A stretch of DNA of 64,000 bases from an uncultured Chromatiales bacterium (GTDB taxonomy: Bacteria > Bacteroidota > Ignavibacteria > SZUA-365). A model generated the notes under the pieces. That model saw only the letters and a list, made by a program, of their open reading frames with translations, searched no databases and was not told the origin of the DNA. The translations under genes and the position numbers were made by a program. Numbering within the stretch: position 1 is the stretch's first letter; each line of letters begins with the position of its first letter. The stretch lies in NCBI GenBank assembly GCA_964635845.1, contig CAZWNO010000004.1, positions 821-64,820 of the forward strand, in the 5' to 3' direction. Positions 5,874 to 49,180 of the stretch are shown piece after piece.

Positions 5874-6078
5874 ACGGGGCTCCGTTGATGGGAGTATGGT
5901 TGCTCTCGTCCCGGGTATCGGGGGAAAGCCTGTTGTCGTGTGAAGGGACGGTGGATAATATACGACACGTTATATCCGAATACAACATATCCGACGGTCA
6001 GCCGCGCGTGGACGCGGCGCGCGACCGTTCCGCCTAAGCTCCGCTTTGCGGAGCGAAGGCGGATGGCTATCTTTCCGC

Positions 6079-7083: not shown

Positions 7084-9672
7084 CTACCGCGCCACGGGAA
7101 GGCGCAGCAGCGACTGTCCTTCCGGGGTGATCAGCAGGACGATGTAAAGACCCGATGGCACGGGGGGAATCGTGATCGCGAGTTGATGGACTCCGGAGTC
7201 CATTGTCCCGAATTCAGTCCTGCCGAGTTCCCGACCGAGCATGTCGAACAGGACTGCGCGCAGCGGCATGCGGTGTGCGAGTTCGACGGCCAATGTCGCC
7301 GATGTCGCTGCGGGAACGGGATACACCGCATGGATGCGCAGCGCCGTCGGGAGCGGAGCGGCAGACACGATGCCGGTCGGCAGTTTTCCCGATCCGTACA
7401 GGTAAATCTTCAATTCCGGATGCATCGGGTCGTTTGTCGCGAAGAGCAGGTAGGTATGGAAATATCCGGTGGATCGCGGAGAAAACCGGATCCAGAGGGG
7501 CTGCGGTTCGAATGGTTTGATCTCCTTTGGGAACGGTTCCTCGATCGCGAAGTGCACGCTGTCCGCGCCGTCGAAGCGCGGCGATCCGAGCCGCATGATT
7601 GTCCCGCCCGCATTGATGGGAAAGTACCCCCGCACCTGGGAGTCCCCGACGGCGACCGCGTCGAACGGCAGTGATCCGTATGCCGGCTGGAGCACCGGCC
7701 ACGGCGGCCAGCCGACGGACGCGCGCAATGCGGTGCGTGTTGGCGTAACGCTGACGGCATCATGGTCGATCAGCATCGTGGCGGAAAGACCTGCCGTGCT
7801 TGAAAACACGCATCGCAAGGTGAGTGAATCCATCCCGTGCGCCGGAAGCTCGGCGGCCGGTGCGCGAAGAAGCTGGAACAGCTCCGCATCGGGTCCTTCG
7901 ATTGTCACGGACCGGATGCGCAGCGGCGCGGCGTTCGGATTCTCTATCAGGAGTGTCGTATCCGATATTATTTCCGCACCGATGTATCCGAAATCCACGA
8001 GCCCGGGAATCCGCGGCGGCAGATCTTCATCCGCCGGCGCGGTGAAGCAGCGCACGCTCACTTCGCGGATGTACCCTGACGGCGGTGCGGTCGACTCGAT
8101 GAGCAGCCGTCCGAATTGCGTCCCCGCCTGTTGTCCGCCCTGTTCCAGAAGGAGCACGGCATTGCTCCGCGCGGGGATCAGCCGGGGGATCGGGGGAACG
8201 ATGCGCAGCACATCGGTGTCGAAATCGGGGAGTTCGATCGAGTGAATATCCAGCGGTCTCCCGCCGGTGTTGCGCAGCACGACCGCATGCGTTGTCGGAG
8301 TTCCCTCCCGCGTGTCGCACATGACCGCATCCTGCACGCTCAGTTCAGGCTGCAGCTGGCGGGTGTTCCGGATCGCGCCCGAGGCGATGATCGCATGCAG
8401 GCAGCCGTCTGTGAATACCGCATTCGTCAGCCGCGCATCGCAGCTGTCGTTCAGGCTGAGGTTCCACGCGTCGAAGAGGAGCAGCCCGACAGTATCGGTT
8501 GTCAGAAATGCGGGCGCGAGACTCGTCCACTGGAGTGAGGTCTGTCCGGGGATGAAAGTCATCGGCGCGTCCGGGCGAAGCGCCGCGGACGAGGTAGTGT
8601 CCAGACCGATGAAGCGGATGGTGCCGTTCCCGAACTCGATCGAGCAGGTGAACGGGGGCAGCGAATCCCGCGGGAAGGCGCGGTCGGTCAGCAGCGGCAG
8701 GCGCGCCCGCCCGTCCTCGCCGACCTCCGCCACGCCGAGCGCGAAGCGCACCGGGGTGAGCTGCGTCGAATCGTAGCGGGACCGATAGGTCCTCGCCACG
8801 GAAAGGGTGTCGTTGCAGACATCGGAGAACAGCAGCCGTGATGTCCGCAGCAAGCCCCTGGGACATGGTTCCGGCATCGCGTACACGGCGGAACACTCGT
8901 TGAACCGCTCCGTCGCGAGGCGGAGCGCTTCCTCCATGATCGAGGTCAGCTGAGTGGGATAAATGGTCTGGAAGTATTTTCCGCCCGTGAGCATGGCGAG
9001 CATTTCCATATCCGAATTCGGAGTGGAACTCCCCAGCGAGATGGCGACGATGCGGATGTGTTCCTTCTGTGCGAGCGCGATGATCTCGGCGACGGTTCTC
9101 GAGGAACTTCCATCCATTCCGTCTGTGAGGCACACGAGCGTGCGGGCGTTGCCGGACGCCGAGCTGGCGATCTCGATCAGCGCCGTGTAGATGCCGTCGT
9201 AGAGGGACGTGAAGCCGCTCGGTTCCAAGGCATCGACGGCGGCGTGCAGCTTCGCGGCTTCGTTCGTCAGCTTCTGGGCCACCGTCACGTCGGTCGAGAA
9301 CCAGACCACCGCCGCCTCGTCCGTCGTCCATACCATCCGATCGATGAGCGCATGCATCGCCTCCCGCAGACCCCGTATCCCGTAGCCGGTCATGCTGCCG
9401 CTGTGGTCGAGCGCGAAGCCCATCGTGACCGGGTAACGCAGTCCGGGCTCGGGACAGAACAGGTCGAACCGCGCGACATCGACGGAATCGTTTTCGATGA
9501 TGCGAAGCCGGTCTTTCGTAACTCCGACGATGCTGCCGTCACAGGCGAGTGACCAGTAATATTCCACGTCCGGGTGGAGGTACGCGATGCGCGCCGATCG
9601 CAACTCGGGCTGCGCGGCCGCCGGATAGGCGAGGATGGTCAAAAGGATGAAGGTAAAAAGCCGCGCGATCAT
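7084..9672 (-). CDS. Large secreted von Willebrand factor A (vWA, MIDAS DxSxS) domain protein with a T9SS C-terminal sorting domain
   Basis: Signal peptide MIARLFTFILLTILAYPAAAQ (the ORF could extend to 9735). MIDAS motif FALDHSGSM. C-terminal GLYIVLLITPEGQSLLRLPVAR has the T9SS tail pattern. Confidence 0.7.
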   Translation of the reverse strand: MIARLFTFILLTILAYPAAAQPELRSARIAYLHPDVEYYWSLACDGSIVGVTKDRLRIIENDSVDVARFDLFCPEPGLRYPVTMGFALDHSGSMTGYGIRGLREAMHALIDRMVWTTDEAAVVWFSTDVTVAQKLTNEAAKLHAAVDALEPSGFTSLYDGIYTALIEIASSASGNARTLVCLTDGMDGSSSRTVAEIIALAQKEHIRIVAISLGSSTPNSDMEMLAMLTGGKYFQTIYPTQLTSIMEEALRLATERFNECSAVYAMPEPCPRGLLRTSRLLFSDVCNDTLSVARTYRSRYDSTQLTPVRFALGVAEVGEDGRARLPLLTDRAFPRDSLPPFTCSIEFGNGTIRFIGLDTTSSAALRPDAPMTFIPGQTSLQWTSLAPAFLTTDTVGLLLFDAWNLSLNDSCDARLTNAVFTDGCLHAIIASGAIRNTRQLQPELSVQDAVMCDTREGTPTTHAVVLRNTGGRPLDIHSIELPDFDTDVLRIVPPIPRLIPARSNAVLLLEQGGQQAGTQFGRLLIESTAPPSGYIREVSVRCFTAPADEDLPPRIPGLVDFGYIGAEIISDTTLLIENPNAAPLRIRSVTIEGPDAELFQLLRAPAAELPAHGMDSLTLRCVFSSTAGLSATMLIDHDAVSVTPTRTALRASVGWPPWPVLQPAYGSLPFDAVAVGDSQVRGYFPINAGGTIMRLGSPRFDGADSVHFAIEEPFPKEIKPFEPQPLWIRFSPRSTGYFHTYLLFATNDPMHPELKIYLYGSGKLPTGIVSAAPLPTALRIHAVYPVPAATSATLAVELAHRMPLRAVLFDMLGRELGRTEFGTMDSGVHQLAITIPPVPSGLYIVLLITPEGQSLLRLPVAR

Positions 9673-27757: not shown

Positions 27758-28155
27758 GCGCTCATAGCTCTGACATGATGTGTTGAATTGAGCGTCGTCG
27801 ATTTAGGATGTAATATCGATGCAGTTTTGCTGCAAAATAGCGATTAACACGCAAAATATCGATCAGAGCCTTGCCGCGCCCCTCTCTGTCAGGATAGTTG
27901 ACCTTGCGCTGTGAAGTCAGAACTACATCAGTAGCGACGTCAAGTTGCACCTGTGATAAGGTTGGGCCCCTTGATATCGCCGATCAAACAGAGGTATTAA
28001 ACAGGTCTTAGCTGCATCTTTCAAGAGCAGGTGTGTTGAGCGTCAGGAGAAAAGTCGGAAGGCGTATTCGGTCAGGTACGAACGGTTAAGACGAACGTAA
28101 GTCAACCATCGAAGAAGTATCGAGAGCAGCATTCGCCGTCGAAACCGGGATTTAG

Positions 28156-37287: not shown

Positions 37288-38265
37288 ATGACACGCAGCC
37301 TCGGTATCGCACTTCTGTTTTTCCTTCCCGTCTCACTGTTTTCCCAGAGCATCCTCTTCGAAGAGCGCTTCACCGGCGGCCAGCTGCAGAACGAATGGCG
37401 TCCCGGTTTCAACGGCAACTCCATGGATGTCGAGAGTCTGCTGAACAATCCGAGCGGCGACGGCTGGGTCGGCAAGCTGGGGAATCATTTTTCCGGCGGG
37501 AACGTGGGCGCGACGCATTCCTCCGTGCACTTCACCGATTTCTACTATGAAGCCCAGGTGTACATTCCGGTCGACGAGGGCGTGTACTACGGCCTCGAGT
37601 TCCGGGTCGACACGACGGGACTCTCTTCCGGCTACCAGTTCATCGCCCGCTTCCTGCCCGGCGGCATGGTGACACCGCGTCTGCGCTTCCGCCTGCGTCC
37701 CTCCGACAACCCCGGCACTCCGACGGTCCTGCGCGACTGGGAGGAGGCGGAAATCCCCGGCGGCATTCCCGTGCTGAGCGGCTGGCACAAGCTCGCGGTC
37801 AAGGCGGAAGGCCACCGGTTCTGGTTTTACTATGACGGCCAGATGCTGCCCGGGTCGCCGATCATGGACTTCACCTCCCTGGGCGGCACGATCGGCGCCT
37901 ATGTGTGGGACAGCTCGTCGCCGATGCTGAACCTCTACATCGACGACATCATGGTGTATTCGGATATTCCCACGGGGATATCCGATCCGGCCGCCGAAGT
38001 CCCGGCCGCCGTGCTGCTGCAGCCCTACCCCAATCCCGTGCGCGAAGGAGCAACGATCGTCTTCGAACTCCCGAAGCCGGAGCATGTCACCATCAACGTC
38101 TACGATTTCTGCGGGCGGGAGCGCGTCCGCATCGCGGATGCGGTATACGACGCCGGACGGCACAGCGCAGCCTGGAACGGCGCCGGCCTGCCAGAAGGCA
38201 GTTACCTGCTCCGGCTCGCGACACCGTCGTCCGTTCAATCGCGGGTGATGACGGTCCTGCACTGA
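37288..38265 (+). CDS. Secreted concanavalin/LamG-like (DUF1080-like jelly-roll) protein with a T9SS C-terminal domain
   Basis: Signal peptide MTRSLGIALLFFLPVSLFSQ. WHKLAVKAEGHRFWFYYDG motif. C-terminal LQPYPNPVREGATIVFELP..GSYLLRL has the T9SS tail pattern. Confidence 0.55.
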   Translation: MTRSLGIALLFFLPVSLFSQSILFEERFTGGQLQNEWRPGFNGNSMDVESLLNNPSGDGWVGKLGNHFSGGNVGATHSSVHFTDFYYEAQVYIPVDEGVYYGLEFRVDTTGLSSGYQFIARFLPGGMVTPRLRFRLRPSDNPGTPTVLRDWEEAEIPGGIPVLSGWHKLAVKAEGHRFWFYYDGQMLPGSPIMDFTSLGGTIGAYVWDSSSPMLNLYIDDIMVYSDIPTGISDPAAEVPAAVLLQPYPNPVREGATIVFELPKPEHVTINVYDFCGRERVRIADAVYDAGRHSAAWNGAGLPEGSYLLRLATPSSVQSRVMTVLH

Positions 38266-40141: not shown

Positions 40142-40438
40142 ATGAACATCTACGTAGGCAACCTCGCTTATGGTATCCGCGAAGAAGAGCTGCGCTCGGT
40201 CTTCGAAAACCATGGCGCAGTCGATTCCGTCAAGGTCATCATGGATCGCGACACCGGTCGCTCCAAGGGTTTCGCGTTCGTCGAAATGCCGAATGATGCG
40301 GAAGCGAAAGCGGCCATCGAGCAGCTCAATGGCGTGGAACTGCAGGATCGCAGTATCACGGTCAATGAAGCGAAGCCGCGCGAAACGCGTTCGAACCATG
40401 GTGGCGGCGGTGGTGGCTACCGTGGAAATCGCTGGTAA
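40142..40438 (+). CDS. Glycine-rich RNA-binding protein with one RRM
   Basis: RNP-2 IYVGNL and RNP-1 KGFAFVEM. Gly-rich tail GGGGGGYRGNRW. A long ~180-nt upstream leader. Confidence 0.85.
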   Translation: MNIYVGNLAYGIREEELRSVFENHGAVDSVKVIMDRDTGRSKGFAFVEMPNDAEAKAAIEQLNGVELQDRSITVNEAKPRETRSNHGGGGGGYRGNRW

Positions 40439-40463
40439 GAGAAATCTGCACCACATGAATATG

Positions 40464-40497
40464 AAAAGGCGTCCCGGTTAACGGGACGCCTTTTTCA
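40464..40497 (+). terminator. Rho-independent terminator
   Basis: Perfect hairpin ggcgtcccg-gttaa-cgggacgcc followed by ttttt. Confidence 0.8.
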
Positions 40498-40589
40498 CAT
40501 GCTCGCTGCATCGTTCCCGCGAAGGGGTGGAGGATGCGCGATCCTGCTCGGGGGTTCTTCCCGTCCCGGCAATCCTCAGCGGGCTGCGA

Positions 40590-40660
40590 TTGAAAAAAAA
40601 TATTTCTCCTTGATTGCATATATCGGATATAACCAATTATATTTATCCGATATACGATCC
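40590..40660 (+). promoter_or_regulatory. AT-rich promoter/operator region of the arg operon with two palindromic TATCSGATA sites
   Basis: tatcggata at 40621..40629 and tatccgata at 40645..40653 (mutual reverse complements, 24 bp apart). ttgatt -35-like at 40610. A GC trough in an otherwise 65% GC genome. Confidence 0.4.
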
Positions 40661-40895
40661 ACATACCTGACCGCAATGACTCATTTCCGTTTCCACGGAC
40701 AACGCTGCATTCCTGCCCGCCTCCGCAGCCGCGCGTTCCAGCGACGATACGGCGACCACGCCTGCGCCATCATGCGACGATGCGTCATTTCTGATCCCCT
40801 GAAAAAATCGGAATCACATCCTCCGCCGGCGCGTGCGATACGTGCCGGCGGCATTTGATACTCACGTTTCCCGTGAATTGTGCAAAGGACACAGC

Positions 40896-41627
40896 ATGCT
40901 GGTGAGTTTCTCCGTAGAAATCGGTTGTGCGGCCCATGCGGAATGGGCCGGAACCATCTGTCGGTCCATCGAGGAGGCGGCGCGCGCGCGCGGAACGGGC
41001 ATCGCGCGGCGCAGTCCGGAGTACATCGTCGAAAAGCTGAGGGAGGGGAAAGCCGTCATCGCGTTCGCGCGGGTCGACGAATCCTCCGCTCCGGATTTCG
41101 CAGGATTCTGCTATATCGAATCCTGGGGAGGGAAGAAGTATGTCGCCAATTCGGGACTGATCGTGCGTCCCGAGTACCGGCACAGCGGGCTCGCCCGCGA
41201 CATCAAGCGCCGCGCTTTTGAACTCTCGCGCGAGAAGTATCCGGCGGCCAAGCTGTTCGGCATCACGACCAGCCATGCGGTGATGAAGATCAACACGGAC
41301 CTCGGCTATGTTCCCGTTCCGTTCAGCGAGCTGACCGACGACGAGGAGTTCTGGGCCGGCTGTCGGAGTTGTCCCAATCACGATATCCTCCTGCGCACGC
41401 AGCACAGGATGTGCCTCTGCACCGGCATGCTCTGCGATCCGGAGGATCCCCGCACGCGCATGCGGGAAGCGATCCACCGTCACCTCGTCACCATCTCGCT
41501 CCCCGAGAATGGAGCGGAAGAACGGCACCCGCCACGCATCGGCGAAGGGCATATCACGGCTGAAGTGGAACACGTCACAACTGAAGTGGAACACAGCACG
41601 TTTGAAAACGAGGTGATCGATGCCTGA
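40896..41627 (+). CDS. GNAT family acetyltransferase, first gene of the arg operon (candidate N-acyl-glutamate synthase)
   Basis: RPEYRHSGLARDIKRRAFEL is a GNAT motif A-like segment. Sits immediately upstream of argG. An alternative start is 40833. Confidence 0.5.
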   Translation: MLVSFSVEIGCAAHAEWAGTICRSIEEAARARGTGIARRSPEYIVEKLREGKAVIAFARVDESSAPDFAGFCYIESWGGKKYVANSGLIVRPEYRHSGLARDIKRRAFELSREKYPAAKLFGITTSHAVMKINTDLGYVPVPFSELTDDEEFWAGCRSCPNHDILLRTQHRMCLCTGMLCDPEDPRTRMREAIHRHLVTISLPENGAEERHPPRIGEGHITAEVEHVTTEVEHSTFENEVIDA

Positions 41628-42820
41628 AAGGAAAATCGCGGTGCTCGCCTTCAGCGGCGGACTCGACACGACTTACTGCGCGCTGCATCTGGCGAAGGAT
41701 CTGGGGTACGAGGTGCACGCGGTCACCGTGAACACGGGCGGCTTCGACGATGCGGCGCTGCGGGAGATCGAATCCCGCGCACGCGCGCTCGGCGCCGCGC
41801 GGCATGTCACGCTCAACCGGACGCAGGATTTTTACGATCGCTGCGTGCGCTTTCTCGTGTATGGCAATGTCCTGCGCGGCAATGTCTATCCGCTTTCGGT
41901 GAGCGCCGAACGGGTATTCCAGGCCGAGGCCATCGCGCGGTACGCCCGGGAAAGCAATGCCGACGCAGTCGCGCACGGATCGACCGGCGCGGGGAACGAT
42001 CAGGTGCGTTTCGACACGGTGTTCAACATCCTCCTGCCCGGCGTCCGGATCATCACACCGATCCGTGATCATGCGCTGTCGCGGGAGGAAGAGATCGCGC
42101 GGCTCCGGGAGCACGGCGTGGAGATGGACTGGAGCAGGGCCGCATACTCGATCAACAGGGGACTCTGGGGTACGTCTGTCGGCGGTCGCGAAACGCTGAC
42201 ATCGGGACAGCCGCTCCCCGAGGGGGCCTGGCCCACTCCCTGCACGAAGACGGACAGCGAGGAGATCGAACTGCAGTTCATCCGCGGTGAATTGAAAGGT
42301 GTGAACGGCGAACCGTACGCATCACCGATCGATGCGATCCGCGCGGTGGAGCGAATCGCTTCCGCCTACGCCGTGGGACGAGGGATGCATGTCGGCGACA
42401 CGATCATCGGATTGAAAGGACGCGTCGGCTTCGAAGCGGCGGCTCCCCATCTCATCATCGCCGCGCATCGCCTGCTGGAGAAGCACACGCTGACGAGGCA
42501 GCAGCAGCTGCTCAAGGACCAGCTGGCCCTGACCTACGGATCGCTCGTGCACGAGTCGCAGTTTCTCGATCCCGCGGCGCGCGACATCGAACGGTTTTTC
42601 GAAAGCACGCAGACGACGGTCAACGGAGTGGTGCGCGTACTGCTGGCGCCGTACCGCTTCGAACTGCTTGGCCTGCGGTCGGAGAACGATCTGATGGCAG
42701 GACGCTTCGGCGCCTACGGCGAAATGAGCACACTGTGGTCCGGTGAGGACGTGCGCGGATTCTCGCGCATCTATTCCAACAACCTGATGATGTACTTCGC
42801 CGTGAACGGGGAGGGGCAGG

Positions 42821-42828
<8 letters not shown>
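41620..42828 (+). CDS. argG: Argininosuccinate synthase
   Basis: AFSGGLDTTYC (PP-loop), AHGSTGAGNDQVRF. Confidence 0.9.
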
Positions 42829-43795
<967 letters not shown>

Positions 43796-43804
43796 GGAAA
43801 GACC

Positions 43805-44980
43805 ATGGTGCTTTTCGACGTGTATCCGCGGTATGACATCGAACTCGTTCGCGGCGAGGACGTCTGGGTGTGGGACGCCGCGGGCACGCGGTATCTCGAC
43901 GCGTACGGAGGCCATGCGGTGATATCCATCGGACACGCGCATCCGCATTTCACCGGGCGCGTCGCGGAACAGCTGCGCCTGCTGCCGTTTTACAGCAACG
44001 CGTTCCGGAACACACTGCAGGAGGAATACGCGCGGCAGCTGGGGACGTCCTGCGGATATCCGGAATACCAGCTCTTTTTATGCAATTCAGGGGCCGAGGC
44101 CAACGAGAATGCGCTCAAGCTGGCGTCGTTTCACACCGGGCGCGGAGCCGTGCTCGCATTTCGCGGCGCGTTCCACGGACGCACGTCCGGCGCCGTCGCG
44201 GTCACGGATAATTCCTCGATCCGCGCGCGCTTCAACGAGAGTCATGCGGTCGTGTTCGCGCCGCTCAACGACATCGGCGCGCTGCGGGAAGCATTCGCGC
44301 ATCACCAATTCGCCGCCGCGATCATCGAAGGCATCCAGGGCGTCGCCGGCATCAGGGAAGCGGAGGATCACTTCCTCCGCGAGCTGCGCGCGTTGTGCAC
44401 CGCGCAGGGCAGCGTGCTGATCCTGGACGAGGTGCAGTCGGGATTCGGACGCAGCGGACGGTTTTTCGCCCATCAGCAATCCGGCGTCGCGGCAGACATC
44501 GTCACGATGGCGAAGGGCATGGGCAACGGGTTCCCCGTTGCGGGACTGCTGATCGCACCGGAGCTGCGCCCGAAGCACGGTCTGCTCGGGACGACCTTCG
44601 GCGGCGGACATCTGGCGTGCGCGGCGGCGCTGGCCGTCGTCGAAGTGCTGCGGCGGCAATCCCTGCAGCAGAATGCGGCGGAAACCGGCGCATGGCTGCG
44701 GCAGCGGCTCGCCGCAATCGAAGGCATCGCCGAAGTGCGCGGCCGTGGATTGATGCTGGGCTTCGATACCGATACTCCCGCGAAGGAACTGCGCCTGCGG
44801 CTGCTGCATGATCACGGGGTGCTTGCGGGCGGCGGTGGCGGTCCGTCCACGGTGCGGCTGCTGCCCCCGCTGACGCTCGACATCGAACGGGCTGCAATGA
44901 TTGCCGATGCGGTGGAAGCGGCGCTGCAAGGCCTGCATGAACGTCCGGTCACAACGCACACACAAGGAAACGCGGCATGA
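43805..44980 (+). CDS. argD: Acetyl(succinyl)ornithine aminotransferase, class III PLP aminotransferase
   Basis: LILDEVQSGFGRSGRFFA. TMAKGMGNGFPV carries the PLP lysine. Confidence 0.85.
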   Translation: MVLFDVYPRYDIELVRGEDVWVWDAAGTRYLDAYGGHAVISIGHAHPHFTGRVAEQLRLLPFYSNAFRNTLQEEYARQLGTSCGYPEYQLFLCNSGAEANENALKLASFHTGRGAVLAFRGAFHGRTSGAVAVTDNSSIRARFNESHAVVFAPLNDIGALREAFAHHQFAAAIIEGIQGVAGIREAEDHFLRELRALCTAQGSVLILDEVQSGFGRSGRFFAHQQSGVAADIVTMAKGMGNGFPVAGLLIAPELRPKHGLLGTTFGGGHLACAAALAVVEVLRRQSLQQNAAETGAWLRQRLAAIEGIAEVRGRGLMLGFDTDTPAKELRLRLLHDHGVLAGGGGGPSTVRLLPPLTLDIERAAMIADAVEAALQGLHERPVTTHTQGNAA

Positions 44981-45924
44981 AAAAGTTTTTATCCGTTCAC
45001 GACGCAGGGGATCTCGCGGGGCTGATCGCCGAGGCGCGGGCGCACAAGGCCGATCCCTTTGCATGCGAGCAGCTCGGGCGCCGGCGCACGCTCGGACTGG
45101 TCTTCTTCAACGCCAGCCTGCGCACGCGGCTCAGCACGCAGCGTGCGGCGCAGAATCTCGGCATGAACGTGATTGTGCTCAACACGGGCCAGGATGCCTG
45201 GCAGCTCGAGTTCGCCGACAGCACGATGATGGACGGCGGCAGTGCCGAACACATCCGCGAAGCGGCGGGCGTGCTGGGCGAGTACTGTGACATCATCGGC
45301 GTGCGCGCGTTTCCCGCGCTGAAGGATCGCGAAGCCGACGAACGCGAAGAGGTGATCTCGGCCTTCGTCCGGTTCAGCGGCAGGCCGGTGCTGAGCCTCG
45401 AATCCACCACGCGCCATCCCCTGCAGTCCCTCGCGGATTGTGTCACGGTGGACGAACTGTGTCCCGTCGCTCGCCCGAAAGTGGTGCTCACCTGGGCGCC
45501 GCACCCGCGCGCGCTTCCGCAGGCCGTGCCGAATTCCTTCGTCGAATGGATGCGCGCGATGGACGTGAACCTCGTCGTGTCGCACCCGCTGGGGTACGAG
45601 CTGTCGCCGGCATTCATGAAGGACACGGTGGTGGAGTACGACCAGTCCGCGGCCTTCGAAGGCGCGCATTTCATCTATGCGAAAAACTGGTCCAGCTATC
45701 GCGAGTATGGACAGATCCTCCGGAACGACGCGGAGTGGATGGTCACTGCGGGCAAAATGGCGGCCACGGCGGATGCGAAATTCATGCACTGCCTGCCGGT
45801 GCGGCGGAATATCGTCGTGGAGGATGCCGTGCTCGACGGTCCCTCCTCGGTCGTGCTGCGGCAGGCGGGTAACCGCATCTGGTCCGCGCAGGCGGTGCTG
45901 CGGCGCATGCTGGAGGCGCTGTAG
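44977..45924 (+). CDS. argF': N-acyl-L-ornithine carbamoyltransferase (AOTCase/SOTCase type ArgF'), not a classical OTCase
   Basis: The carbamoyl-phosphate motif is SLRTR (FNASLRTRLS) rather than STRTR. HCLP motif FMHCLPVRR. Collinear with Bacteroides/Xanthomonas ArgF'. Confidence 0.75.
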   Translation: MKKFLSVHDAGDLAGLIAEARAHKADPFACEQLGRRRTLGLVFFNASLRTRLSTQRAAQNLGMNVIVLNTGQDAWQLEFADSTMMDGGSAEHIREAAGVLGEYCDIIGVRAFPALKDREADEREEVISAFVRFSGRPVLSLESTTRHPLQSLADCVTVDELCPVARPKVVLTWAPHPRALPQAVPNSFVEWMRAMDVNLVVSHPLGYELSPAFMKDTVVEYDQSAAFEGAHFIYAKNWSSYREYGQILRNDAEWMVTAGKMAATADAKFMHCLPVRRNIVVEDAVLDGPSSVVLRQAGNRIWSAQAVLRRMLEAL

Positions 45925-45927
45925 CGT

Positions 45928-46713
45928 ATGAGCGCGCACACCGCGACCGTCGTCAAGTTCGGCGGACGCCTGCTCGAGGATGCGGGCCGCCGTCGCACGG
46001 CACTCGAAGGGTTTTCCTGCCTGTCCGGTCCGCGCGTGCTCGTGCACGGCGGGGGACAGGCCGCGAGCGCGCTTGGCGAACGGCTCGGTGTCGCGCCGCG
46101 CATCGTCGATGGAAGAAGAATAACGGACCGGGAAACCCTTGATATCGTCACCATGGTGTACGGCGGACTGGTGAACCGGTCGATCGTGGCGGAACTGCAG
46201 GCGCTTCGCTGCAACGCCTGCGGCGTCGCGGGAGCCGATTACGACATGCTGCGCGCCGGGCGGCGGCCCGTGCGCGAGATCGATTACGGCCATGTCGGAG
46301 ACATCACGCGCGTCAACGCGGATGTGTTGCAGAGGCTGCTGGAGCAGGGGATCGTTCCGGTGATCGCTCCCCTGACGCACGACGGAGCCGGCGGACTGCT
46401 GAACACCAATGCCGATACCATCGCCGCGGCCGTGGCCGCGACGCTCTCCGCATCGCTGGCGGTCACGCTCGTGTACTGCTTCGATCGCCCGGGCGTGAGC
46501 GGAGAGGGAGGCAGGACGCTCGATCGGATCACCCCGGATACGGCAGGGGAACTGCGGGCGCGCGGAGTTATCTCGTCCGGCATGCTGCCGAAGCTGGAAT
46601 CCGCTTTCTCGGCGAAGCGCGCCGGTGCCGCGCGTGTCATGCTCTGCGGCATCGGGCAGCTCGTGCCGGCCGCGGAGGGACATAAGGATGCAGGAACGGA
46701 GGTCTGCCTGTGA
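45928..46713 (+). CDS. argB: Acetylglutamate kinase
   Basis: VVKFGGRLL, LVHGGG, and amino acid kinase family blocks. Confidence 0.85.
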   Translation: MSAHTATVVKFGGRLLEDAGRRRTALEGFSCLSGPRVLVHGGGQAASALGERLGVAPRIVDGRRITDRETLDIVTMVYGGLVNRSIVAELQALRCNACGVAGADYDMLRAGRRPVREIDYGHVGDITRVNADVLQRLLEQGIVPVIAPLTHDGAGGLLNTNADTIAAAVAATLSASLAVTLVYCFDRPGVSGEGGRTLDRITPDTAGELRARGVISSGMLPKLESAFSAKRAGAARVMLCGIGQLVPAAEGHKDAGTEVCL

Positions 46714-47774
46714 GCACGCTCTCCGAGGCGATCGCGCTGCTGGCCGATCTGATCCGCACGCCCTCGTTCAGCCGCGAGGAACAGGCGACCGCGGATCTGC
46801 TGGCGCAGTGGCTTCAGGCGCGCGGCGCGACCGTGCATCGGAAGGGGAACAATCTCTGGACATTCGGAAAGGCATTCGACGCGGAGGCGCCGACCGTCAT
46901 GCTCTGTTCGCATCATGACACGGTACGTCCCGTGGCGTCGTGGCAGCGCGATCCCTTCGATCCGCTCATCGTGGACGGACGAATCGTCGGACTGGGCAGC
47001 AATGATGCGGGCGGCTGCGTTGCAGCGCTCTGCGGCACGTTCCTCTCACTGCATGAACGCCGGGATCTTCCTTTCAACCTGCTGCTCGTACTCAGCGCCG
47101 AGGAGGAAATCGCGGGCGATGGCGGCGTGGCGAGCGTGATGGACGAGGTCGGTCCTGTCGAACTCGCGATCATCGGCGAACCGACGGAGATGCAGCTGGC
47201 TGTCGCGGAGAAAGGCCTGCTCGTTCTGGACTGCGTCGCGCACGGCATCGCCGGACATGCGGCGCGTTCGACCGGCGTCAACGCCATCAGTGTCGCGATG
47301 CGCGACATCGACTGGATCGAACGGTATTCCTTTCCGCTGCAATCGGCGCGGCTGGGCCAGGTGAAGATGACCGTCACCCAGATCGAAGCGGGGACGCAGC
47401 ACAATGTCGTTCCGGACCGCTGCCGCTTCGTGGTCGATGTGCGCGTCACCGAGCGCTACACGCACGAGGAAATCCTCGCGACGCTGCGGGAGCATCTGCA
47501 CTCGGATGTACAGCCACGCTCCATGCGGCTGCGTCCTTCCGCGATACCTGACAATCATCCCATCGTGCAGGCGGCCGCGGGGATGGGACTCGCGTGCTTC
47601 GGTTCGCCGACCATGTCGGATCAGGCGCTGCTCAGTGTCCCCTCGGTGAAAATCGGACCCGGGCGCTCGGAGCGCTCGCACACCGCCGGGGAATTCATCA
47701 CCCTCGAGGAACTCGAACACGGACTGCGGATCTATCACGAACTCATTCAACGATATGCGGAGCTGCGGAGATGA
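46710..47774 (+). CDS. argE: M20-family deacylase (ArgE/DapE-like: acetyl- or succinyl-ornithine deacylase)
   Basis: CSHHDTV..GSNDAGG metal-binding motifs. ATGA-type overlaps with its neighbours. Confidence 0.7.
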   Translation: MSTLSEAIALLADLIRTPSFSREEQATADLLAQWLQARGATVHRKGNNLWTFGKAFDAEAPTVMLCSHHDTVRPVASWQRDPFDPLIVDGRIVGLGSNDAGGCVAALCGTFLSLHERRDLPFNLLLVLSAEEEIAGDGGVASVMDEVGPVELAIIGEPTEMQLAVAEKGLLVLDCVAHGIAGHAARSTGVNAISVAMRDIDWIERYSFPLQSARLGQVKMTVTQIEAGTQHNVVPDRCRFVVDVRVTERYTHEEILATLREHLHSDVQPRSMRLRPSAIPDNHPIVQAAAGMGLACFGSPTMSDQALLSVPSVKIGPGRSERSHTAGEFITLEELEHGLRIYHELIQRYAELRR

Positions 47775-49114
47775 AACTCTGGGATAAGGGCGGCAAGACC
47801 GACGAAAGGATCCATCGCTTCACCGTGGGCCGCGATCCTGCATTCGATCTGCAGCTCGCCGAATACGACGTGCTCGGTTCCCTGGCCCACGCACGCATGC
47901 TTCAGGAGTGCGGAATACTGAGCGGCGAAGTGTGGCGCGCCGTCGAAGCCGGGCTGCAGTCCATCTACCGCGCGATCGCGGACGGGACCTTCGTCATCGA
48001 GGACGGGATCGAGGATGTGCATTCGCAGATCGAGCTGCTGCTCACGCGCGGCGCGGGCGAGGCGGGGAAGAGCATCCATGCCGCGCGCTCGCGCAACGAT
48101 CAGGTGCTGCTCGACCTGAAGCTGTATCTCCGCGATCGCATACGCGACATCGTCGGCGAGGTCGCCCTGCTGGCCGGCGAGCTGCTCGACCGCAGCGACC
48201 GCCACGCGGCGGTCATGCTGCCCGGGTACACGCACGGACAGGCGGCGATGCCGTCGTCGTTCGGCCTGTGGTTCGCCGCGCATGCCGAGAGTCTCGCGGA
48301 GGACCTCATCCCGCTCCATGCGGCGTACCGTATCGCCGACCGCAATCCTCTCGGATCCGCGGCGGGATATGGATCCTCGTTCCCGATCGACCGCGACCGC
48401 ACGACCGCGCTGCTCGGCTTCGAGGCGATGCATGTGAATGCGATCGATGCGCAGCTGAGCCGCGGAAAGACCGAGCGCATCGCGGCGCAGGGCTTATCCT
48501 CCGTGGCGGCATCGCTCGCGCGCTTCGCCGCCGATGTGTGCATGTATGTCTCGGGAAACCATGGATTTCTCCGTCTCCGCGAGGAAATCACGACGGGATC
48601 GAGCATCATGCCGCACAAGCGCAATCCCGACGTCTTCGAACTGATCCGCGCGCGCTGCAACCGCATACAGGCCGTGCCGGGCGACATCGCGATGAGCATG
48701 ATCAATCTCCCATCGGGATACCATCGCGACCTGCAGATCATCAAGGAACTGCTGTTCCCCGCCATTGAGGAACTGCGCGACTGCCTGCGCATCGCGCGCC
48801 ACGCCCTCGCGTTCCTCGAAGTGACGGAGGGATTGCTCGACGATCCGCGCTATCGGGACATCTTCAGCGTCGACGCCATCCAGCAGTGCATGGCCGGCGG
48901 AATGACATTCCGCGATGCGTACCGCGAAGTCGCGGCGAGTCTGCAGGATGGAAGCTTCACGATTCCGGAGTCGCCGGGGTCCACCCATCAGGGCAGTCCG
49001 GGCTATCTCTGCAACGACCGCATCCGCGCGATGCTTTCGGATGAGGTCGCCCGATTCCCCTTCGCACGCCGCGACGAGGCCTTCCGTACGCTGCTGACGC
49101 CAGCCACCTGCTGA
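47771..49114 (+). CDS. argH: Argininosuccinate lyase
   Basis: GSSIMPHKRNPD fumarase/lyase signature. Start at MKLWDKGGK overlaps the argE stop. Confidence 0.9.
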   Translation: MKLWDKGGKTDERIHRFTVGRDPAFDLQLAEYDVLGSLAHARMLQECGILSGEVWRAVEAGLQSIYRAIADGTFVIEDGIEDVHSQIELLLTRGAGEAGKSIHAARSRNDQVLLDLKLYLRDRIRDIVGEVALLAGELLDRSDRHAAVMLPGYTHGQAAMPSSFGLWFAAHAESLAEDLIPLHAAYRIADRNPLGSAAGYGSSFPIDRDRTTALLGFEAMHVNAIDAQLSRGKTERIAAQGLSSVAASLARFAADVCMYVSGNHGFLRLREEITTGSSIMPHKRNPDVFELIRARCNRIQAVPGDIAMSMINLPSGYHRDLQIIKELLFPAIEELRDCLRIARHALAFLEVTEGLLDDPRYRDIFSVDAIQQCMAGGMTFRDAYREVAASLQDGSFTIPESPGSTHQGSPGYLCNDRIRAMLSDEVARFPFARRDEAFRTLLTPATC

Positions 49115-49180
49115 TGCCTCGCACCTGCCGATGCCTCGCACCTGCTGATGCCTGGCGTCTGCTGATGTCTGGCGCCTGGA
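49100..49180. repeat. Tandem repeat, ~17-bp unit cacctgcYgatgcctcg, about 4.5 copies, overlapping and following the argH stop
   Basis: Direct reading. Confidence 0.8.

Follow-up and report, generated by a model that had tools for sequence, protein, structure and literature searches.

We analysed a 64,000-nucleotide (nt) stretch of DNA, hereafter the window, from an uncultured Bacteroidota-group organism (assembly GCA_964635845.1, contig CAZWNO010000004.1), in which eight same-strand genes for arginine biosynthesis (arg genes) lie at 40896-49114; positions are those of the window, and the genes and leader features of the locus are on the plus strand. We found that the best-conserved regulatory feature of this operon takes the form of a small open reading frame (ORF) with tandem arginine codons, followed by a hairpin, which lies between an AT-rich patch and the first gene and had been missed in the initial annotation, made from the sequence alone. 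We consider it likely that this is a succinyl-type Bacteroidota arg operon, transcribed from a Bacteroidetes-type promoter and headed by an Arg-codon leader through which the ribosome senses arginine. A wider proposal, namely that many Bacteroidota without an operon-encoded ArgR use a hitherto undescribed arginine leader peptide, with tandem or triple Arg codons at the end of its ORF and a non-classical signalling element working through Rho or through translation control, is offered tentatively, as plausible rather than probable.

The region upstream of the operon was compared with the same locus in eight distinct relatives, seven of them close (L003, L006, L008 and L170-L173) and one more distant (L174), whose first-gene proteins, of the GNAT family, share 63-81% identity with that of the window; together with the locus itself (L001) this gave nine sequences. 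Scans of genome and metagenome contigs with the GNAT protein listed matches of at most 66% identity, and the close relatives were fetched singly; one further fetched locus, L175, is without this type of leader. In all nine distinct sequences the leader ORF, which corresponds to 40676-40783 of the window (MTHFRFHGQRCIPARLRSRAFQRRYGDHACAIMRR), is exactly 35 codons long and free of insertions and deletions, while the spacer on its 3′ side has both. The codons M1, R5, L16, R17, R23, R24, R34 and R35 and the stop codon TGA are invariant, so that arginine makes up six of the eight invariant sense codons. The first tandem Arg pair (CGA CGA, codons 23-24, at 40742-40747) is nucleotide-invariant in all relatives, and the second (CGA CGA, codons 34-35, at 40775-40780) abuts the leader stop and is aligned in the relatives with Arg-Arg followed by the invariant TGA. 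CGA is a rare codon here, accounting for 6 of the 226 Arg codons (2.7%) in the eight operon genes. As read off the alignment, the window and L003 share about 90% of the nucleotides in the 240 nt that separate the AT-rich patch from the GNAT start; the GNAT protein, with 81% identity to L003, is less similar than this leader region. The pattern suggests that the leader ORF is translated.

We then surveyed the phylum, using 162 distinct regions upstream of the GNAT gene among the matches listed from genomes and metagenomes. A short upstream ORF with two consecutive arginines in its last eight residues was present at 76 of the 162 listed loci, compared with 15 in the reverse complement, and three consecutive arginines occurred at 35 of them, where the reverse complement gave 3 and shuffled sequences about 1, while a run of any other residue was found at no more than 3 of the 162. 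The Arg codons differ by lineage: Flavobacteriaceae have CGT-CGT-CGC-CCG-stop and Balneolaceae CGG-CGG-CGG-stop; other lineages use CGA or AGG/AGA. Because the lineages use different codons for the same residue, the meaning seems to lie at the codon level and not in a nucleotide motif. Among the listed loci without argR in front, 68 of 118 have an Arg-run leader, whereas no Arg-run ORF was found upstream of argR in 28 argR-first operons (for example L050, L056 and L097). A comparison of leader against argR at the same position was rejected as confounded, the argR gene itself filling that space, and the count given here was redone upstream of argR. Leader and operon-encoded ArgR look like alternative arrangements.

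The Flavobacteriaceae loci show some features of their own. The terminal RRRP and the stop of these leaders fall within an invariant CGCCCGUAAGGGUG hairpin (L035:8894-9009, L040:8899-9015, L063:8895-9012, and 20 loci besides), and no more than about 8 nt separate the leader ATG from the -7 box upstream of it. Next comes a second hairpin, whose stem covaries (GGAAAU/AUUUCC, GGAGCC/GGCUCC, GGAACC/GGUUCC) around an invariant, Shine-Dalgarno-like loop, AGGUGAGUCC. This leader element had no match in Rfam.

Downstream of the leader stop the window has a C-rich, G-poor spacer (40784-40822, GC skew -0.30), and the excess of C over G there is 0.14-0.30 in all nine sequences, which makes the spacer a possible loading site for Rho. 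The spacer is followed by a GC-rich hairpin, H1 (40823-40851, CCGCCGGCGCG / loop TGCGATA / CGTGCCGGCGG), recognised by folding and covariation: 92.7% of cells are paired across eight sequences, two pairs have changed on both sides, the loop is nearly invariant, and the predicted stability is -18 to -26 kcal/mol. A smaller hairpin, H2 (40863-40875, CACG / TTTCC / CGTG), shows two compensatory changes and is weak, with 72% of cells paired. H1 may act as a factor-dependent terminator or as a pause site.

According to the model that we favour, the first sequence to be transcribed would be the 35-codon leader ORF and not the GNAT gene, and this leader probably lets the ribosome sense the arginine supply. 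When charged tRNA-Arg is scarce, the ribosome would stall at the CGA pairs and expression of the operon would go up; when arginine is plentiful, the ribosome would complete the leader ORF and depart, and expression would go down. The C-rich stretch may load Rho unless it is covered by the stalled ribosome. We infer both the direction of the leader effect and the way in which the signal would be transmitted. In tnaC of E. coli, the ribosome is retained where the leader ends and masks a neighbouring Rho loading site. The second Arg pair of the window, which abuts the stop and is followed by the C-rich stretch, would fit the picture given by tnaC and by orf34 of Salmonella speF. In orf34, an upstream ORF, two consecutive Arg codons sense arginine by ribosome pausing; its target is a polyamine gene, and part of its action goes through RNase G (PMC6386406). 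The leader of the window shares no sequence similarity with orf34 and stands before genes of arginine biosynthesis.

Several observations weigh against this interpretation. Variation in the leader ORF is flat over the three codon positions (0.34, 0.26 and 0.35), and stops are nearly absent from one alternative frame as well; because of the flat variation, the open frame taken alone is weak evidence, although free variation is to be expected of a regulatory leader, whose peptide would do nothing by itself. It could also be that the invariant GCGACGA serves as a motif of the RNA or DNA and is in frame by coincidence. No run of T follows H1 in the window or in L003, L006, L008 and L170-L173; candidate antiterminator duplexes with the 5′ arm of H1 were no better than those of shuffled sequences, and constrained folds keep H1. 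Hairpins with a T-run were not enriched at listed loci with a leader (15 of 76) over those without (11 of 86). A six-frame motif scan found no argR-like gene in the 64-kb window, and the genome may have one elsewhere. Finally, the enzyme specificities described below are deduced from residues.

The alternative that survives best places the control in the promoter. The AT-rich patch (40590-40660), with 27% GC against 62-70% in the genes, was recognised by composition and does contain the two 9-bp palindromes described for it, TATCGGATA at 40621-40629 and TATCCGATA at 40644-40652; their starts are 23 nt apart by our measurement, and not 24 bp, with a gap of 14 nt. The patch also holds a predicted promoter (40614-40645), identified by conservation and composed of TTG (40614-40616), a 21-nt spacer and TATATTTA (40638-40645). 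As read from the upstream alignments, TTG-N21-TATATTTA is kept at fixed spacing in the eight relatives, L174 having the variant TATGTTTG, and it resembles the Bacteroidetes promoter consensus (-33 TTG / -7 TAnnTTTG). Transcription most likely starts from this Bacteroidetes-type promoter within the patch, and the start site would be at about 40650. Both palindromes are contained in an inverted repeat found by repeat search and alignment (40619-40654, TATATCGGATA / TATCCGATATA), which is perfect over 11 nt (40619-40629 with 40644-40654) and has a conserved core, GGATA (40625-40629)-N14-TATCC (40644-40648), whose right arm overlaps the -7 box.

It is possible, and in our view rather unlikely, that an arginine repressor binds these paired palindromes as its operator and that the operon is controlled mainly in this way. 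The arrangement recalls ArgR and its ARG boxes, where paired palindromic sites likewise lie over the arg operon promoter, and the core is exact in four of the eight relatives (five of nine sequences including L001) with one or two mismatches in the others, although its left arm lies in the otherwise unconstrained promoter spacer. In the extended form GGATA(AA)-N-(TT)TATCC it keeps the same centre across the relatives, and L003 has one compensatory change in the inverted repeat, from C:G to T:A. GGATA-N8-16-TATCC is also over-represented in the window (4 copies against 0.27 expected, a number reached by 0 of 100 shuffles). However, neither 9-bp palindrome is kept as a palindrome in the eight relatives, L003 reading TTATGGATA and TATCCAATA, and the -7 box alone explains part of the conservation of the right arm. 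With at most one mismatch, the 9-mer palindrome pattern occurs 16 times in the whole window against 10.4 expected, and 5 of 100 shuffles reach 16, so that it is barely above chance; the sole further exact copy, at 7959, is inside an 883-amino-acid ORF. Nor did we find a match to the ARG box with three mismatches or fewer (core TGAAT-N4-ATTCA and the 18-bp box pair) in 40500-40900, and the absence of an argR-like gene from the window is matched by its absence beside the operon in the relatives.

The distribution of related motifs in the window bears on the same question. CGGATAT occurs 20 times against 10.1 expected, a number reached by 0 of 100 shuffles, and it forms intergenic pairs, direct or inverted and spaced by 15-19 nt, at 5972/5987, 49247/49265 and 55994/56013, with another pair at 37961-37984 inside a gene. 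The first of these is the motif pair that had been reported at 5971-5995, and it is real, the minus strand having CGGATAT at 5972 and 5987. GGATA-N14/15-TATCC is found again at 5953 and 55995. Next to these pairs and core copies lie genes for secreted proteins and for an ABC ATPase, and a 162-amino-acid ORF for a small unknown protein. Because the core and the CGGATAT pairs precede unrelated genes, GGATA-N14-TATCC is not an arg-specific operator, and the CGGATAT pairs look like candidate sites of a regulator not tied to arginine genes. Thus, of the proposal that the palindromes form a repressor operator, the conserved inverted-repeat core stood, whereas the 9-bp palindromes themselves were not conserved and specificity for arg genes was not borne out. 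It is nevertheless plausible that a protein binds over the -7 box, because the left arm falls within the spacer, which has no other reason to be conserved, and we regard the inverted repeat as a candidate site for a DNA-binding protein. Together with the leader, such a protein bound at GGATA-N14-TATCC may give a second layer of control. The locus differs from ArgR systems in that its motif is unlike the consensus and occurs at non-arg genes, and argR-first operons are without the leader (0 of 28). In three relatives a gene of 177-178 amino acids, which the window lacks, lies divergent from the arg promoter (L006:1135-1668, L008:101-637 and L170:2055-2591, minus strand). This gene was considered as a named regulator and rejected, as it had no meaningful Pfam match.

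Less probable still is a classical attenuator of the trp or his type, in which H1 would serve as intrinsic terminator, with a mutually exclusive antiterminator forming when the ribosome stalls. The likeness to trpL, hisL and pheL is evident in the short ORF, the run of cognate codons near its end and the conserved, stable, GC-rich hairpin after it, and canonical terminators are seen at some loci: L174 has the same hairpin followed by T9, a textbook terminator, and L017 (Calditrichota) has T8 after an equivalent hairpin. Here the amino acid is arginine, and the window and its seven close relatives show neither a T-run terminator nor a detectable antiterminator, since pairing was no better than in shuffles and H1 persists in constrained folds. 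Because of these two absences the classical scheme fails two defining tests at this locus, and terminators are not enriched among the listed loci phylum-wide.

That the 240-nt leader is a structured RNA, either a riboswitch or a protein-binding element, with an incidental ORF, is quite improbable, since H1 is the only supported helix, the ORF keeps its length, start and stop whereas indels occur in the spacer that comes next, the phylum shares an Arg run in differing codons and no common sequence, and Rfam gave no match at the leader (scans at gathering thresholds of the whole window and of eight related loci, and a permissive scan of 40440-40920), although the nucleotide invariance of GCGACGA, the threefold recurrence of related GCGA(C)GATACG motifs, the nearly invariant H1 loop, the flat variation across codon positions and the gene for an RRM RNA-binding protein directly upstream in several relatives speak in its favour.

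The proposed ribosome-sensing leader makes a natural variant in the window itself of interest. Position 40783 is C here and A in two independent public assemblies from this organism; otherwise the window agrees fully with them, over 15,578 nt for L001 and 2,467 nt for L002. The change turns the leader stop (40781-40783) from TGA into TGC, and the leader ORF of the window thereby runs to 60 codons, through the spacer and H1, up to a TGA at 40856-40858. It could be a polymorphism or a consensus error. If the model is true, the variant should alter regulation, probably toward constitutive expression, as ribosomes running through the spacer and the hairpin could lock the operon on.

The operon that follows is a new member of a described Bacteroidota pathway via succinylated intermediates, and the enzyme that reveals the acyl group is the transcarbamylase ArgF′ (44977-45924). 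It belongs to the knotted group and, as already noted in the initial annotation, has SLRTR instead of STRTR, within FFNASLRTRLS. We aligned ArgF′ with the N-succinylornithine transcarbamylase (SOTCase) of B. fragilis (1JS1, 2FG6) and the N-acetylornithine transcarbamylase (AOTCase) of X. campestris (3KZK); the former alignment is nearly gap-free with an E-value of 2.4e-116, while the latter is far weaker (7e-55). The carbamoyl-phosphate motifs SxRT, HPxQ and HxLP (PMC4581275) appear as SLRTR, HPLQ and HCLP in the alignment to 1JS1, the proline-rich loop of the knotted group is TWAPHPRALPQAVPNS aligned to TWAPHPRPLPQAVPNS, and the Trp of the 80's loop (W75) is retained. According to a review by the group that solved the structures, Glu92 of the acetyl enzyme is replaced by A/S/P/V/Q in the succinyl enzyme, Asn185 by Pro, and Lys302 by V/I/E (PMC4581275), and under the rule of the GapMind authors position 90 marks the succinyl type when it is S, P, A or V (PMC7311316). 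In ArgF′ these positions are Ala90, Pro181 and, for Lys302, Val (RRNIVVED vs RRNVKATD), which is the succinyl pattern at three of three positions. H176, R178 and R278, which hold the succinyl group in the crystal structure (PMC4581275), are identical to 1JS1 in a gap-free alignment, and K236, E142, W75, F112 and R110 are also retained. The acyl group is thus predictable from sequence because the published discriminators all give the succinyl type, and the earlier statement that it could not be settled in this way was too cautious in view of these discriminators and anchors. ArgF′ is predicted to be an N-succinylornithine transcarbamylase.

In the predicted pathway, the GNAT enzyme would succinylate glutamate; ArgB, ArgC and ArgD would turn N-succinylglutamate into N-succinylornithine; ArgF′ would carbamoylate the latter; the M20 enzyme would take the succinyl group off; and ArgG and ArgH would complete arginine. 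The same enzyme set is known from B. fragilis and B. thetaiotaomicron (SOTCase 1JS1/2FG6, the ArgA2 protein BT3761 and the desuccinylase BT3549), with which the window also shares a GNAT gene inside the arg cluster, an M20 deacylase acting after carbamoylation, and the SLRTR motif, proline-rich loop and succinyl-binding residues of the transcarbamylase. It differs in that its eight genes, scattered in B. thetaiotaomicron, are gathered into a single compact operon, in having Ala where the Bacteroides enzyme has Pro at position 90, and in being headed by a leader ORF, with no argR gene at the head. The Xanthomonas campestris pathway likewise uses a knotted transcarbamylase on N-acylated ornithine and a deacylase on acyl-citrulline, but its AOTCase has Glu92, Asn185 and Lys302 where ArgF′ has Ala, Pro and Val.

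The first gene (40896-41627) encodes a GNAT-fold protein, a predicted N-acylglutamate synthase and the presumed counterpart of ArgA2/BT3761. By itself the protein matches PF00583 below the Pfam cut-off (E 0.0013), whereas 29 of 35 aligned family members match it and the family profile matches GNAT structures in the PDB, so that the predicted fold assignment is weak for the single protein and solid for the family. An AlphaFold model (mean pLDDT, the predicted local distance difference test score, of 86) matches N-acetylglutamate synthases best among PDB structures, namely 2R8V (NAGS of N. gonorrhoeae) and 5YO2/5YGE (ArgA of M. tuberculosis). The family is large in Bacteroidota and common in their arg operons, and the arrangement with GNAT as the first gene and a succinyl-type argF′ in the same operon is shared by the relatives. 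Among the matches listed, homologues in Bacteroidaceae, Odoribacter and Calditrichota genomes have 59-62% identity, and the published identity between BT3761 and Cabys_1732 is 59% (PMC8121099). BT3761, encoded in the arg operon of B. thetaiotaomicron, is required for growth without arginine and has been proposed to be an N-succinylglutamate synthase (PMC8121099, PMC7311316, PMC9026213), its use of succinyl-CoA being an inference in that work (PMC7311316). The GNAT family of the window is probably that of BT3761/ArgA2, and its member here is predicted to be an N-succinylglutamate synthase. The family also has an invariant C-terminal motif with four cysteines, GCxSCPN ... CLCTGM, which is not part of the core GNAT fold and is a possible metal site; beyond residue 195 the tail is variable and of low confidence in the model.

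The ORF listing, NCBIfam and Pfam upheld the gene order GNAT-argG-argC-argD-argF′-argB-argE-argH and its coordinates as given in the initial annotation, and the gene calls of public assemblies, made independently on the same sequence, agree with them. After the GNAT gene come argG (argininosuccinate synthase, 41620-42828), argC (42821-43795, TIGR01850 above its cut-off), argD (aminotransferase of the acetyl/succinyl-ornithine family, 43805-44980), argF′, argB (N-acylglutamate kinase, 45928-46713), the gene for an M20 deacylase of the ArgE/DapE family (46710-47774), which pathway logic and published work (PMC7311316) predict to be an N-succinylcitrulline desuccinylase, and argH (argininosuccinate lyase, 47771-49114). 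The assignment to the N-acyl-ornithine type holds, as the knotted ArgF′, the GNAT first gene and the M20 deacylase are all present. The tight packing of the genes is confirmed, although ATGA overlaps are not found at all junctions: there are two overlaps of 8 nt, three of 4 nt (ATGA, GTGA and ATGA) and two gaps, of 9 and 3 nt.

What is new at this locus is the leader, the pathway and the role of the GNAT protein having been published. Arginine biosynthesis is a textbook case of control by the ArgR repressor. To our knowledge, the amino acids for which classical leader-peptide attenuators exist (trp, his, phe, leu, thr and ilv) do not include arginine. For the Bacteroidetes themselves Rfam lists a trp leader motif. 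We found no arginine leader peptide described in Bacteroidota or before an arg biosynthesis operon, either in Rfam 15 or in the literature searchable in full text, which leaves subscription-only papers outside. The closest published cases, besides orf34, are rbfL of S. aureus, an arginine-sensing upstream ORF that controls another gene (PMC13009471), and a paper on Flavobacterium psychrophilum that reports leader-peptide attenuation before amino-acid operons, arginine being unnamed in its main text. The operon alone would add little, being one more member of a mapped pathway whose specificity can be read by published rules. If true, an Arg-codon leader spread across the phylum and alternating with ArgR encoded in the operon would close the attenuator gap for arginine, and it would show ribosome-sensing switches in organisms that make little use of Shine-Dalgarno pairing. 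The cultured Flavobacteriaceae that carry a version of the leader offer an experimental handle. For annotation there is a warning as well, since seemingly empty leaders of 200-250 nt in these genomes can hide small regulatory ORFs.

The host genome has 63-65% GC, and the nearest named genomes among the matches listed in the GNAT scan are metagenome-assembled genomes of Kapaibacteriota, Ignavibacteria and Rhodothermales. The RRM RNA-binding protein gene (40142-40438, NCBIfam Rbp_regulator) lies directly upstream of the arg operon and ends in a terminator hairpin of the classical type at 40464-40494; it is found 5′ of the operon likewise in L003, L006, L172 and L173. At the other end, a 17-nt tandem repeat (CACCTGCTGATGCCTCG; 4.4 copies, 87% matches) at 49105-49178 overlaps the argH stop codon, and because it is absent from L003 and L006, it is taken as a recent lineage-specific expansion. 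Far from the operon, at 27958-28077, Rfam identified domains D1-D4 of a Group II intron (RF01999, 54.5 bits).

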